Shown here one piece after another: positions 26,573-44,444 of a stretch of 64,000 nt of DNA (its first letter is position 1; the number at the start of each line of letters is the position of its first letter). Both the position numbers and the translations under genes were made by a program. The DNA is from Fibrobacteria bacterium (GTDB taxonomy: Bacteria; Fibrobacterota; Fibrobacteria; UBA5070): assembly GCA_035913415.1 (NCBI GenBank), contig JAMIIV010000004.1, positions 57,767-121,766 of the forward strand, given 5' to 3'. A model generated the notes under the pieces. The model saw nothing but the letters and a program-made list of their open reading frames with translations. It was not told the origin of the DNA and made no database searches.

Positions 26573-26763
26573 TGAGAAAAAACCTCCGAGCGGCCAAAAT
26601 CCGCCGCTCGTCCTGAGGAGCGAAGCGTCTCGAAGGGCGGGCGGTGGGTTCGCGAGTACAAGATGTTGTGCCCAGTGCTACGCCGCTGCCCTTCGAGACA
26701 GGGCTTCGCCCTTCCTCAGGACGAGCGGCTTTCTGGTGCACCGGTTTTTTCTCAGGCTCTGAG
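26573..26763. repeat. nested-palindromic ~190-bp element, copy A (reverse orientation of copy B at 44174..44444)
   Basis: Terminal inverted repeats GAGAAAAAACC / GGTTTTTTCTC. Inner 18-bp stem GCCGCTCGTCCTGAGGA / TCCTCAGGACGAGCGGC. Conserved core GGGCACAACATCTTGT. About 85% identical to copy B over the alignable parts. Confidence 0.5.
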
Positions 26764-26781
26764 GAGTCCGGCGAACCCGGG

Positions 26782-26818
26782 ACAAAAAACGTCCGCCTGC
26801 CGAGTGGGCTGGCGGACG
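26782..26818 (-). terminator. rho-independent terminator of icd (minus strand)
   Basis: Minus-strand read: CGTCCGCCAGCCCACTCGGCAGGCGGACG followed by TTTTTTGTCCC. Confidence 0.55.
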
Positions 26819-26842
26819 CCGGGAAAACTCGGGGTGTCTTGA

Positions 26843-29062
26843 TCAGGCCGTCAGGAGCGCCAGGGCCGCGTTGAAGGTCTTGCTCGGGCGCATCACCTGG
26901 GTGAGCTTGGTCGCGTCGGGGCGGTAGTAGCCGCCCACGTCCACTTTCACGCCCTGGGCGCCGTTCAGTTCGGAGACGATCGCCGACTCCTTGGCGGTGA
27001 GCTCGGCGGCAACCGGTGCGAAGCGCGCCGCAAGTTCAGCGTCGAGTGTCTGGGCTGCCAGAGCCTGGGCCCAGTAGAGAGCCAGGTAGAAGTGGGAGCC
27101 GCGGTTGTCCAGTTCGCCGACCTTGCGGGCCGGGGAACGGTTGAACTCGAGGACCTTGCCGTTGGCCTCGTCCAGGGTATCGGCCAGGATCTTGGCCTTG
27201 GCGTCGCCGGTCACCTGCGAGAGGTGCTCGAACGAGACGGCCAGGGCGAGGAACTCGCCGAGCGAATCCCAACGCAGGCAGTTCTCCTCGATGAGCTGCT
27301 CCACCTGCTTGGGGGCGGATCCGCCCGCGCCGGTCTCGAAGAGGCCGCCGCCGTTCATCAGCGGAACGATGGACAACATCTTGGCCGAGGTGCCCAGTTC
27401 CAGGATCGGGAACAGGTCGGTCAGGTAGTCGCGCAGGACATTTCCTGTCACCGAGATGGTGTCCAGTCCTTCCTTGGCGCGCTTGAGGCTCAAGGAACAA
27501 GCGGCGACCGGATCGAGGATCCGGATGTCCAATCCGGCGGTGTCGTGTTCCTTCAGGTACGCTTCCACCTTCTTGATGATTTCGCGGTCGTGGGCGCGCA
27601 CCGGGTCCAGCCAAAATACGGCCGGCAGTCCCGAGAGGCGTGCGCGGTTCACGGCAAGTTTCACCCAGTCGCGGATGGGGGCGTCCTTGGCCTGGCACAT
27701 GCGGAAGACATCGCCCGCGTCCACGGCCTGTTCCAGCAGGATCTTGCCCGAAGCATCCACGGCGCGGATCACGCCCTTGGCGGACGCCTGGAAGGTCTTG
27801 TCGTGGGATCCGTATTCTTCCGCACTGCGCGCCATCAGACCCACGTTGGGGACACTCCCCATGGTGCGCGGGTCGAAGGCGCCGTTCTTCTTGCAGAAGT
27901 CGATGGTCGCAGCATAGACCCCTGCGTAGGAACGGTCGGGGATCACGCACTTGGCGTCCTGGGCCTTGCCCTCCTTGTTCCACATGCGGCCCGAGGTGCG
28001 GATCATCGCCGGCATGGAGGCGTCCACGATCACGTCCGAAGGCACGTGCAGATTGGTGATGCCCTTGTCGGAGTTCACCATGGCCAGGGCCGGGCCTTCG
28101 CCGAGGGCCTTGTCCAGGGCTGCCTTGACTTCGGCTTCCTTGGCGTGCCCCGCAAGGCGCACGTACAAGTCGCCCAGCCCATTGTTGGCGTCGTATCCGA
28201 TCTCCTGGAACAGGTCGGCGTATTTCGCGAACACGTCGCGGAAGAATACCCGCACCACGGCGCCGAAGAGGATGGGGTCGGAGACCTTCATCATGGTGGC
28301 CTTGAGGTGCACCGAGAACAACACGCCCTTGGCCTTGGCGTCGGCGACCTGCTCGGCCAGGAAGGACTCGAGGGCGGACATGGAGAGCACCGAAGCGTCG
28401 AGGATTTCGCCGGCCTCGAGTTTGGCCGCCTTGCGCAGGAGCGAGACCTCGCCGGAAGCGGCGACGAACTCGATGGCGAAGGTGGTGGCTTCGGGCAGGG
28501 TGAGGGACGCCTCGGAGCCGTAGAAGTCACCCGTGCTCATGGACGCGACATGGGTGAGCGATTCCGAGCTCCAAGCGCCCATGCTGTGAGGGTTCTTCTT
28601 GGCGAAGTTCTTGACCGCGCGCGGCGCGCGGCGATCCGAGTTGCCCTCGCGCAACACCGGATTCACGGCCGAGCCCTTGATCTTGTCGTAGCGGGCCTTG
28701 ATGTCCTTCTGGGTGTCGTCGGCGGGAGCGTCGGGGTAATCGGGAAGGGCGTAGCCCTGCGACTGGAGTTCCTTGATGGCGCCCTTGAGTTGCGGGATGG
28801 ATGCCGAGATGTTGGGCAGCTTGATGATGTTGGCCATCGGGTCCTGGGTGAGCGCACCGAGGAACGCGAGGTCGTCGGACTGGCGCTGGCCTTCCTTCAG
28901 AAATTCCGGGAAGGTCGCCAGGATGCGGCCCGCAAGCGAGATGTCGCGCAGCTCCACGTCGATCCCCGCTGGAGCCGCAAAGGCCTTCACGATCGGCAGG
29001 AGCGACTGGGTCGCGAGCATGGGAGATTCGTCGGTCAGGGTATAGTGGATCGTATGCTTCAT
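26843..29062 (-). CDS. icd: monomeric NADP-dependent isocitrate dehydrogenase
   Basis: Internal Met [28 protein letters not shown]. 739 aa, the length and N-terminus characteristic of monomeric IDH. Confidence 0.9.
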
Positions 29063-29260
29063 GGGACTAGAAACTAGTGTAAAGTGCCGGTGAAAACTGC
29101 CCTCGGATCGTGTCGAAGAGCCCATGAAAAGAGGGATCGCGCGGTCTGTTTTCGGGTGTCCCACGGGGTGTGCGCGCGGCCTCGGACCGATGGCCACCCC
29201 TCTGAGAAATTTCGGCGACGCAGACGACTCGACAAGGCCCCGACCGATCCGCATCTCCCC

Positions 29261-29292
29261 AAAACAAAAACGGGAACCCCGCAGGATTCCCG
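29261..29292 (-). terminator. rho-independent terminator (minus strand) inside repeat copy 1: 9-bp stem, UGCG loop, UUUUUGUUUUGGGG
   Basis: Minus-strand read: CGGGAATCCTGCGGGGTTCCCG followed by TTTTTGTTTTGGGG. Confidence 0.55.
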
Positions 29293-29408
29293 TCTTCACC
29301 ACACCCTTCGAGCTTTCGGTTCCGGTGGATGCAGACGACCCGCCCCGACCCCCGAAGGCGTCCGCTTCGGGACAGCGAGCGGGGGAGGAAGGGGAGTATG
29401 CGCCACCG
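29262..29408 (-). ncRNA. candidate structured small RNA (copy 1), duplicate of the 29461..29608 element
   Basis: Same organisation as copy 2 with compensatory or loop-only changes. Hypothesis only. Confidence 0.25.
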
Positions 29409-29460
29409 ACCCCAAAAAGCGGTTCCGGCGGATGGCGACGACTCGACAACGCCCCGGCCC

Positions 29461-29491
29461 AAACAAAAACGGGAACCCCATAGGATTCCCG
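29461..29491 (-). terminator. rho-independent terminator (minus strand) inside repeat copy 2, first terminator after lpdA
   Basis: Minus-strand read: CGGGAATCCTATGGGGTTCCCG followed by TTTTTGTTTGGG. Same stem as copy 1 with loop UAUG. Confidence 0.55.
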
Positions 29492-43200: not shown

Positions 43201-43609
43201 CCTTTCGAACCTCCCTGAGACGTTCGAACCTCTGGTCGCGTCTCTCTTCCCATCGTTCCCGGGATCCCCCCGAACGGTTTCGCGCTTCCGCTTCGGCTTT
43301 CGCGATGGCGGATTGGTGCGCTTCCAGAAGCTCGCGGTGGAGCCGAATTCGTTCTTCGGGCGGCAGGTCGGCCGCGCGGGTGCGCAGGGCCTGGCGATCC
43401 TGCTGGTACTTGTCGCGGATGGCGGCCAGGTCCTGGCGGAGCTGGGGGTCGTCGGAGCGCTCGGAGCCACGGGACTCGGAGGCCGCGGCCTGCTGCGCCA
43501 CCGGAAGAGTCTGGGCCGAAGCGGGCGACGAGATCAGCAGCAGCGCGAGCACGAAGGCCCAGGGGGCGATGCGACGGGCGCGGGCGAACGGATATCCTGT
43601 GTTGCTCAT
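43175..43609 (-). CDS. small periplasmic Spy/CpxP/ZraP-like helical protein (144 aa)
   Basis: Internal Met MSNTGYPFARARRIAPWAFVLALLLISSPASA (signal peptide). Coiled-coil-like DPQLRQDLAAIRDKYQQDRQALRT... Strong AAGGAAGGAGG ribosome-binding site. Confidence 0.5.
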   Translation of the reverse strand: MSNTGYPFARARRIAPWAFVLALLLISSPASAQTLPVAQQAAASESRGSERSDDPQLRQDLAAIRDKYQQDRQALRTRAADLPPEERIRLHRELLEAHQSAIAKAEAEARNRSGGSRERWEERRDQRFERLREVRKDGSGRKRR

Positions 43610-43641
43610 GGCTCGCCTCCTTCCTTGATCGCATTCATACA

Positions 43642-43660
43642 CGGCAACTCGCGGGCCAAG
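43642..43660 (-). promoter_or_regulatory. sigma-54 promoter TTGGCCCGCGAGTTGCC (-24 GG / -12 GC, canonical spacing)
   Basis: Reverse complement of plus-strand cggcaactcgcgggccaag, about 35 nt upstream of the 43609 start. Confidence 0.4.
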
Positions 43661-43778
43661 TGGTCCGAGACACGGGATTTTGGGACTCCCCAGCCACCAA
43701 GAAAGAAAAAGCGGAACCAGAGGTTCCGCTTCCGGCGAAAAAACCGTTTCCAGCCCCAGAGGCGGGGCCGGAGCAGGC

Positions 43779-44003
43779 TTACTTCTTGCCCTTGGCCTCG
43801 GCCTTGGCCTTGGGGGCCTCGGGGGCCTTCTTGGCGGTGTCCACGGCGGCCGGAGCGACCTTCTTGGCGGAGTCCACGGCGGCCGGAGCGGCGACCACGG
43901 GGGCTGCCGGAGCGGCGGGTGCGGCCGGGGCGGCGGGCTTGGCGGTCTCGGCGGCGATGACGGCGACAGCGGCCACGAGAGCGAAAGCGAGGGTCTTCTT
44001 CAC
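43779..44003 (-). CDS. small secreted Ala/Pro/Lys-rich protein (74 aa, GTG start)
   Basis: (M)KKTLAFALVAAVAVIAAETA signal peptide followed by AAPAAPAAP... and a KAKAEAKGKK tail. GGAG ribosome-binding site 9 nt upstream of the GTG. Confidence 0.4.
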   Translation of the reverse strand: MKKTLAFALVAAVAVIAAETAKPAAPAAPAAPAAPVVAAPAAVDSAKKVAPAAVDTAKKAPEAPKAKAEAKGKK

Positions 44004-44138
44004 GATGAGATTCTCCGGAGGGTGAGATGGGCAACTCCTGCTTCGGGCTGTGGAAAGCCAAGCAGGGGGTGGGACCAGCATACCCCGGTTTTCCCGGATC
44101 CGCCGCTCGATTTTTGAAATCGCGTTGACAAACAAGTC

Positions 44139-44162
44139 ACCTGACTGGCGGAATCCGTCGCG
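44139..44162. promoter_or_regulatory. perfect 24-bp palindrome CGGAATCCGTCGCGACGGATTCCG (candidate dimeric regulator site)
   Basis: Read from the sequence. No flanking T-tract. Adjacent to the left end of repeat copy B. Confidence 0.3.
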
Positions 44163-44173
44163 ACGGATTCCGG

Positions 44174-44444
44174 AATCGATGCGCTCAGAGCCTGGGAAAA
44201 ACCGATGCACCAGTAAGCCGCTCGTCCTGAGGAAGGGCGCCCCTCCCCCGCTCACCCTGAGGCGGCCCTTTGGGCCGTCTCGAAGGGGGAGGGTGGCGGC
44301 GGCACGCTGGGCACAACATCTTGTGACCGCGAATCCACTGCCCGCCCTTCGAGAGCTCTCCTGAGCAAGGTCGAAGGGCGCGAGGCAGAGCCTCGCTCCT
44401 CAGGACGAGCGGTTGATTTCGGCCGCTCCGAGGTTTTTTCTCAC
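44174..44444. repeat. nested-palindromic ~270-bp element, copy B (longer version of copy A at 26573..26763, opposite orientation)
   Basis: CTCAGAGCCTGGGAAAAACC...GCCGCTCGTCCTGAGGA...GGGCACAACATCTTGT...TCCTCAGGACGAGCGG...GGTTTTTTCTCAC. Both ends terminate in U-tracts on the respective strands. Confidence 0.5.

Follow-up and report, generated by a model that had tools for sequence, protein, structure and literature searches.

A probable miniature inverted-repeat transposable element enclosing REP-like modules in DNA of a probable Fibrobacterota bacterium

Several described kinds of small, mobile or repetitive DNA invite comparison with a nested-palindromic element that occurs twice, in opposite orientation, in a 64,000-nucleotide (nt) stretch of contig JAMIIV010000004.1 (assembly GCA_035913415.1; this whole stretch is called the window below). 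Among the closest are the MITEs (miniature transposable elements with inverted repeats) of the IS1031 group of the IS5 family, with ISLrh/IS1031 ends, which are small and non-coding, have terminal inverted repeats of about 17 bp that begin GA(G/A)CCTG, and are flanked by a 3-bp TNA duplication (PMC12016507, PMC2516522). Members of this group prefer TNA targets and have exclusively a 3-bp direct repeat (PMC12016507; PMC2516522), and the 17-bp inverted repeats of ISLrh start with GAACCTG (PMC12016507). The element in the window is like them in its size, its lack of coding capacity and its TNA duplication, and its inverted repeats appear similar to theirs in length and start. Unlike them, it has an interior made of an inverted doublet of modules resembling repetitive extragenic palindromic (REP) sequences in place of recognisable insertion-sequence DNA, and a left terminus that varies between copies; no cognate insertion sequence was found for it, and its host is probably an uncultured member of the Fibrobacterota. 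A further likeness is to the eukaryotic NuwaII transposons (PHIS elements, related to PIF/Harbinger and IS5), which show a C-TNA-G target and, as here, a duplication that may be of 3 bp or of 5 bp (PMC4482050). NuwaII elements are autonomous and encode a transposase, and are comparable in target-site signature only.

Other systems resemble parts of the element. Its inner part is like REPINs, in which two inverted REP-like modules form one long hairpin (PMC3116915, PMC3337134). Unlike REPINs, the modules here lie within outer terminal inverted repeats and a target duplication, which are part of the unit that is inserted or absent, and no gene for a REP-associated tyrosine transposase (RAYT) occurs among the 26 window open reading frames (ORFs) scanned with Pfam. 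To our knowledge, the module sequence is unrelated to classical GTAG-type REPs. The pneumococcal SPRITE, a MITE-like repeat and proposed terminator, has A-run/T-run inverted repeats and a long stem and lies near the 3' ends of coding sequences (PMC3049150). It is AT-rich, belongs to the Firmicutes and has no established duplication or empty site, whereas the element in the window is GC-rich, far longer and more tightly paired, and has both. The Correia/NEMIS, ERIC, RUP and YPAL elements are also intergenic, fold-back sequences with filled and empty sites that are polymorphic between close strains (PMC2229807), but they mostly duplicate TA, are A+T-rich and share no sequence similarity with the element. 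The kind of element described here is well known, and the family seems to be previously undescribed.

We consider it highly probable that both elements in the window are copies of a non-coding, non-autonomous MITE of 190-260 bp, because they combine terminal inverted repeats, a 3-bp duplication, filled and empty alleles, absence from orthologous sites and further copies in metagenomes. A MITE-like nature was one of the readings offered in the initial annotation, and these five features now support it strongly. The loci given there were right, and the exact ends have moved to 26568-26759 (copy A) and 44188-44448 (copy B), as set by comparison of filled and empty sites and of other family members. 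The features are as follows, with positions counted in the window and element orientation defined as that of copy A.

26565-26567, plus strand: left target duplication of copy A, TGA, which is the stop codon of the metallophosphoesterase gene; the empty allele has a single TGA
26568-26759, plus strand: copy A, 192 bp, nhmmer family score 201.9 bits
26568-26584, plus strand: left terminal inverted repeat of copy A, GGGAGTGAGAAAAAACC, with 3 mismatches to the consensus GAGCCTGAGAAAAAACC
26604-26639, plus strand: left REP-like module of copy A, CCGCTCGTCCTGAGGA-GCGAAGC-GTCTCGAAGGGCG
26658-26669, strand not applicable: near-palindromic centre of copy A, ACAAGATGTTGT, equivalent to ACAAGATCTTGT elsewhere
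26687-26728, minus strand: right REP-like module of copy A, paired with the left one in inverted orientation
26743-26759, minus strand: right terminal inverted repeat of copy A, identical in reverse complement to the consensus GAGCCTGAGAAAAAACC
26760-26762, plus strand: right target duplication of copy A, TGA
26763-26773 in the window, against 11349-11357 in the close-strain contig L008: patch after the right TGA of copy A, GGAGTCCGGCG in the filled and GGACTGGAA in the empty allele
44185-44187, minus strand: target duplication at the right end of copy B, TCA on the plus strand and TGA in element orientation
44188-44448, minus strand: copy B, 261 bp, with extra REP-like sub-modules in both arms
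44188-44203, plus strand: right terminal inverted repeat of copy B, with the plus-strand sequence GAGCCTGGGAAAAACC
44432-44448, minus strand: left terminal inverted repeat of copy B, which reads AAGGGTGAGAAAAAACC in element orientation
44449-44451, minus strand: target duplication at the left end of copy B, TGA in element orientation, 16 nt past the activator stop codon at 44468-44470

From the outside inwards, the order of parts is the 3-bp TNA repeat, the terminal inverted repeats, short asymmetric subterminal spacers, an inverted pair of modules and a palindromic centre. With an inverted module pair around a palindromic centre, all of it within inverted repeats, the whole element folds back on itself. 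It has no coding capacity, the single ORF that overlaps it being spurious, and at 192 and 261 bp both copies are as small as MITEs are expected to be (less than about 300-600 bp).

The two copies had been proposed as homologues in opposite orientation, and this is borne out by a BLAST match within the window (E 9e-23) and by a mean column identity of 79% in a pairwise MAFFT alignment, with long identical runs shared in opposite orientation. All of the motifs named earlier were recovered and are confined to the two copies within the 64 kb. For example, the 16-nt core GGGCACAACATCTTGT has exact matches only at 26658-26673 (minus strand) and 44309-44324 (plus strand), where 0.32 would be expected in the window, and the only occurrences of the 17-nt stem GCCGCTCGTCCTGAGGA are the arms, four in all, of copies A and B. 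The core, which had been drawn as an asymmetric motif, is indeed present, but it corresponds to the near-palindromic centre of the element, and its equivalent ACAAGATCTTGT is a perfect palindrome in three metagenome contigs (L106, L047 and L043). The extra internal sequence reported for copy B consists of two insertions relative to copy A, of 34 and 36 nt, and these blocks are further REP-like sub-modules, one set per arm. Just two copies lie in the window, as a chance or segmental duplication of an immobile intergenic palindrome would also provide. However, the similarity between them stops sharply at the inverted repeats, TGA flanks both, one site is polymorphic for presence and absence, and related copies occur in unrelated contexts, beside dnaN and a GH5-like gene; we regard simple duplication as extremely unlikely.

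The polymorphism was seen in contigs of close strains, retrieved by exact and near-exact look-ups of the metallophosphoesterase protein encoded next to copy A. Two of these contigs, L008 and L009, carry an empty allele that reads ...CTGCGC-TGA-GGACTGGAAAACCCGGGAC..., with one TGA and no insertion; their identity to the window is 99.4% (L008, over 11.4 kb) and 99.1% (L009). From this TGA, the empty allele leads directly to the terminator of the gene for isocitrate dehydrogenase, which is convergent. The single TGA of the empty allele, set against the TGA found on both sides of copies A and B, answers the question of a target-site duplication that had been raised with the MITE-like reading. Copy A is present in the window and in L010, which encodes the same protein variant as L008 and L009 and is 99.5% identical to L008. 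Another contig, L006, is 100% identical to the window and ends at the exact base where filled and empty alleles part, which suggests that both alleles coexist in its sample. In relatives with 76-80% protein identity, the sequence past the metallophosphoesterase stop codon is different.

Copy B is missing from the orthologous spacer in three related species (L134, L135 and L146; 84-87% DNA identity). The spacer at this site is about 40-50 nt long in these species, compared with about 300 nt in the window, while the flanking genes and much of the spacer are conserved. Exact-protein look-ups with the activator and the small downstream gene returned no near-identical strains at the copy B site, only more distant species.

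The direction of the change at the copy A site can be considered from its flank. The patch after the right TGA differs in length (9 to 11 nt) and sequence between filled and empty alleles; the 120 nt that follow are identical, in strains that are 99.4% identical overall. This patch may be an excision footprint. The GAGTCC of the filled flank is also found in L007, a relative at 80% identity, so the filled flank looks ancestral, and the filled contig L010 resembles the empty strains more closely than it does the window. Loss is therefore at least as likely as gain: judged from these alignments, the L008/L009 lineage may have lost copy A by excision with a footprint, as an alternative at least as likely as acquisition in the window's lineage.

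The element is not unique to these two loci, a possibility that had been left open, since further copies lie on metagenome contigs. A metagenome scan with the arm pattern gave at least 120 loci, from which members with the same outer ends were sorted out by BLAST and an nhmmer profile. At least five further members were found on soil metagenome contigs (L074, L106, L047, L099 and L130), together with a partial member, L043, without the outer right end. In every visible case the junctions have the form C, TNA, the element (G..TGAGAAAAAACC ... GGTTTTTTCTCAGGCTC), TNA, G. Read in element orientation, TGA stands on either side of the three copies whose two ends can both be seen (A, B and L130), and at single visible ends the trinucleotide is TGA in L074 and L099, TTA in L047 and TCA in L106. 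The base to its left is C in 5/5 visible cases and the base to its right is G in 5/5. Because the flanking trinucleotide varies as TNA, and because the empty allele has one C-TGA-G, it is the duplicated target and not part of the element. The terminal inverted repeats are imperfect, 16-17 bp long, with the consensus GAGCCTGAGAAAAAACC, which is matched perfectly by the right ends of copy A, L074 and L047 and by the left end of L106. In L130, both arms carry GAGGAAAACG, a concerted change. Contigs often break inside or at the edge of the element, as at the ends of L074, L106, L047 and L043 and in L006, L009 and L010; these breakpoints occur in short-read metagenome assemblies and in Logan contigs, a behaviour typical of repeats.

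Other collections yielded no further members. The core 18-mer had five matches among 185,579 species representatives in GTDB, all of them by chance and with no other part of the element nearby; the window's own species is not represented there with this 18-mer. Among the PLSDB plasmids, BLAST with the whole element and with its right end gave one 36-nt match in Roseibium, with the rest at chance level. The inverted-repeat 17-mer had ten chance matches in IMG/VR, with no partner inverted repeat and no match to the family, on contigs with a G+C content of 28-59%, below the 66% of the window.

If the element is a MITE, mobilisation in trans by an IS5-family, IS1031-like DDE transposase is somewhat favoured. 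This reading is drawn by analogy, because the 3-bp TNA duplication and the 17-bp inverted repeats match the IS1031 group. The start of the repeat, GAGCCTG..., agrees with the GAACCTG... of ISLrh at 6/7 first positions, one published inverted repeat being compared, and the C-TNA-G target with the same 3-bp/5-bp ambiguity recurs in the IS5-related NuwaII transposons of eukaryotes (PMC4482050). In such a mechanism, the transposase, most likely of IS1031-group type, would be encoded elsewhere in the genome and would bind both inverted repeats. Cuts staggered by 3 nt at C-TNA-G would allow the element to be inserted and TNA to be duplicated. Both TGA and TAA fit TNA, and a stop codon used as the target would be rebuilt upon insertion without harm. 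A likely side-effect would be bidirectional termination or RNA-end stabilisation by the long, G+C-rich hairpin bracketed by A6 and T6.

Several observations weigh against these proposals. From copy to copy, the left end differs in its outermost 4-6 nt (GGGAGT, AAGGGT, GAGAGT, GATCGC and GAGCCT), which would not be expected of a DDE substrate that has been active recently. Every copy that shows both of its ends is TGA/TGA, with no matched pair in which N is a base other than G, so a 3-bp duplication is not separable from a 5-bp (CTNAG) one. There are two copies per 64 kb in the window and none in about 80 kb of related strains and species, and the 9-to-11-nt patch beside the right duplication is not explained by simple insertion. 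No second pair of the inverted repeats lies in the 64-kb window. Pfam showed no IS5-type transposase in 26 of the 36 called window ORFs, no autonomous partner was seen in the window or in the contigs compared with it, and plasmid and viral collections gave chance matches only. It is the mechanistic claim that is weakened by the variable left 4-6 nt, the want of a pair with N other than G and the missing cognate insertion sequence. The only transposase-like gene seen in the window is a Transposase_31 ORF (YhgA/Rpn-like, PD-(D/E)XK; 61578-62552, plus strand; E 1e-36). It is unlikely to mobilise the MITE, and TNA duplications are not expected from such an enzyme.

The interior of the element is an inverted pair of a REP-like module, CCGCTCGTCCTGAGGA ... 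GTCTCGAAGGGCGG / CCGCTCGTCCTGAGGA...GTCTCGAAGG, around the palindromic centre. The module is 50-60 nt long and can be written as CCGCTCGTCCTGAGGAG(C/G)G, a variable apical hairpin, and CGTCTCGAAGGAC. The inner doublet spans 125-195 bp and forms one long hairpin. Most of the at least 120 metagenome loci have the arm module only, with no MITE, and there the module occurs mostly in inverted pairs, head-to-head or tail-to-tail. Such naked doublets are found in soil and rhizosphere metagenomes (for example, L034 1875-2040, L117 4584-4686 and L114 395-497, within the set L014-L133), and doublets of the same kind lie on plasmids of Sphingobium and Sphingopyxis (NZ_CP117163.1 4520-4631 and NZ_CP076395.1 347344-347462). 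We considered whether the naked doublets are themselves MITEs with the same inverted repeat and duplication, and rejected this, as they have neither signature: convincing flanking inverted repeats occur only in copies A, B and L130 among 26 complete head-to-head doublets with flanks. The naked module is REPIN-like in appearance and very abundant. A literature search on strings of the module sequence gave unrelated primer matches only. On this anatomy, the element is best described as a putative transposon shell, of inverted repeats and short spacers, around a REPIN-like doublet, and these two layers explain the nested palindromes.

The doublet also raises another route of movement, in which a REPIN- or PATE-like element is moved as single-stranded DNA by a tyrosine HUH transposase, either RAYT or an IS200/IS605-type TnpA, acting on the module hairpins. 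CTGAG would then be a conserved cleavage or target motif, with no duplication. An inner inverted doublet is the arrangement that defines REPINs (PMC3116915, PMC3337134), doublets without the outer inverted repeat are widespread, and most copies have CTGAG both at their left flank and at their right end. Furthermore, the element has variable left terminal nucleotides and asymmetric ends, which are seen in IS200/IS605 too. Nevertheless, the unit that is present or absent at the copy A site includes the outer inverted repeats and one extra TGA, and differing trinucleotides (TGA, TTA, TCA) flank an inverted repeat that stays constant. In L106, the target is reversed (CTCAG) beside a perfect inverted repeat, a poor fit to a strand-specific mechanism. 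The naked doublets, with no inverted repeat or TNA signature, behave as a separate class, and neither a Y1 transposase gene nor a RAYT gene is among the scanned window ORFs. Taken with these points, both movement by an HUH enzyme and a cleavage-motif role for CTGAG appear quite unlikely, and a MITE moved by an IS1031-like transposase remains our preferred reading.

The element had also been read as a possible structured RNA, and the predicted folds are very stable. Both copies fold far better than shuffled sequences (z -7.8 and -5.4), with hairpin energies of -118 and -152 kcal/mol, and the central sequence is common to both copies. These are the points in favour of a conserved non-coding or cis-regulatory RNA with stems kept by selection at the RNA level. 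However, Rfam gave no match at the gathering threshold across the window and nothing credible even at E<=10, the best sub-threshold match having 21 bits where the cut-off is 40. For the consensus fold, RNAalifold gives a covariation term of +1.58, and compensatory changes affect only 2/44 pairs; the stems are simply invariant, as expected of young repeats. The better-folding strand is the sense strand in three copies and the antisense strand in four, the core 18-mer has only chance matches in the species representatives, and relatives lack the element at orthologous sites. There is thus no support for a dedicated structured RNA, and we consider RNA-level selection on the stems very unlikely.

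A role in termination is a different matter, in that it would give the MITE a function and is no rival to the MITE reading. Here the mobile element would be retained by its host as a bidirectional intrinsic terminator or 3'-end stabiliser, as proposed for SPRITE. The long, G+C-rich hairpin lies between A6 and T6. The initial annotation had described a U-tract on the strand of the adjacent gene; it is present, but it is not strand-specific, since the inverted repeat holds A6/T6 and gives a U-tract on both strands. On both strands the giant hairpin has U6 after it, although this U6 pairs with A6, and a canonical short hairpin with a T-run is found on the antisense strand of the element only, in both copies. 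Four copies (A, B, L099 and L130) are directly 3' of a gene in the same orientation, three of them on its stop codon. The empty allele has, by eye, no plus-strand hairpin and T-run behind the metallophosphoesterase gene, and SPRITE, with AAAA/TTTT inverted repeats and enrichment at the 3' ends of coding sequences, provides a precedent (PMC3049150). Against this, sites 3' of genes are also the least harmful for insertions, strains without copy A persist, and L047 lies upstream of a gene start. By a crude count, C-TGA-G stop codons moreover make up about a quarter of tolerated CTNAG sites in the window, and three of five copies on stop codons is no significant excess. A termination effect is plausible from the anatomy, and retention of the element for that purpose is a tentative suggestion that we hold to be less probable than its being unretained. 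A separate, ordinary, bidirectional-looking terminator hairpin lies outside the MITE at 26780-26826 (GTCCGCC...GGCGGAC, preceded by A6 and with a minus-strand T-run). Its place is immediately 3' of the gene for monomeric isocitrate dehydrogenase (26843-29449, minus strand), and filled and empty strains both have it.

The position of the copies relative to stop codons probably follows from the target. Copy A had been placed 6 nt after the stop codon of its gene; instead, the left duplicated TGA is itself that stop codon. The left TGA is likewise the stop codon of a real gene in L099 (dnaN, whose product ends ...LMPLRLSD*) and in L130 (a GH5-like ORF of 1014 codons). Copy B is not on a stop codon, but 16 nt beyond that of its gene. 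TGA and TAA fit TNA and the stop codon is rebuilt, which explains how three copies sit exactly on stop codons; such insertions are harmless because the duplication restores the stop. In the window, endings of the form C-TGA-G occur in 4/36 called ORFs, compared with 12 intergenic CTNAG sites, and by a crude binomial estimate (P about 0.1) three of five copies on stop codons is not significant. We read this placement as a by-product of target choice and purifying selection.

CTNAG, the target of the MITE and the recognition site of DdeI, is the most under-represented of the 256 gapped tetranucleotides in the window, with 45 sites compared with 169 +/- 11 expected from dinucleotide shuffles. Ten of the 45 sites lie within or at the MITE copies. 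By a first-order Markov model, the observed/expected ratio is 0.21 in the window minus the MITEs, 0.13 in L007 and L134 together, and 0.27 in L135 and L011 together, about two-fold below that of similar words (0.41 for GTNAG/CTNAC and 0.35 for CANTG). Codon structure explains part of the depletion, and restriction avoidance is a possible cause of the remainder. A composite reading joins several of these observations into a mobile terminator cassette. In it, an IS1031-like shell would have captured a REPIN-like double hairpin common in other phyla, would land preferentially on C-TGA-G stop codons, which are rebuilt, in a CTNAG-depleted genome, would provide bidirectional termination for the tagged genes, and could be re-excised to leave a footprint. 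As a joint proposal this is unlikely.

The gene 5' of copy A encodes a metallophosphoesterase (25122/25227-26567). In L011 (2290-12129; also in L012 and L013; 76% protein identity), what appears to be an integrated phage- or satellite-like element follows the metallophosphoesterase gene, with genes for DnaB, DUF927 (primase-like) and GpA terminase domains. In this relative, a different mobile element thus occupies the same intergenic spot. The gene beside copy B, at 44468-46204 on the minus strand, had been called an FHA-sigma54 activator; its product is a 578-amino-acid regulator with GAF, sigma54-interaction and HTH_8 domains, and Pfam finds no FHA domain in the 818-amino-acid window ORF that contains it. 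The gene before the activator encodes a Ser/Thr protein kinase in L134 and L135. Between copy B and a small gene for an Ala/Pro/Lys-rich product (43779-44003, minus strand; 74 amino acids), the spacer at 44020-44165 (minus strand) is strongly conserved in the 84-87%-identical species. The conserved block includes GTCAACG.GATTT..AAAATCGAGCGGCGGATCCGGGAAA in the window and its equivalents in L134, L135 and L146. It may be a promoter or an activator-binding region, and the insertion point of copy B lies immediately upstream. Both flanking proteins have their nearest named homologues in Fibrobacterota metagenome-assembled genomes, and the G+C content of the window is 66%; the host is probably an uncultured Fibrobacterota lineage.

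These findings add a MITE family, with a clean example of filled and empty alleles and a defined C-TNA-G target, to a probably uncultured Fibrobacterota lineage. Soil bacteria, sphingomonads among them, have a great abundance of naked copies of the doublet that the family encloses. There are practical consequences, in that metagenome assemblies break at the element and that it is open to being mis-called as a structured RNA or a terminator. The exact placement on stop codons illustrates how insertion can be harmless through TNA duplication. If a terminator role or a real targeting of stop codons were true, the family would be a useful natural example of mobile 3'-end signals.

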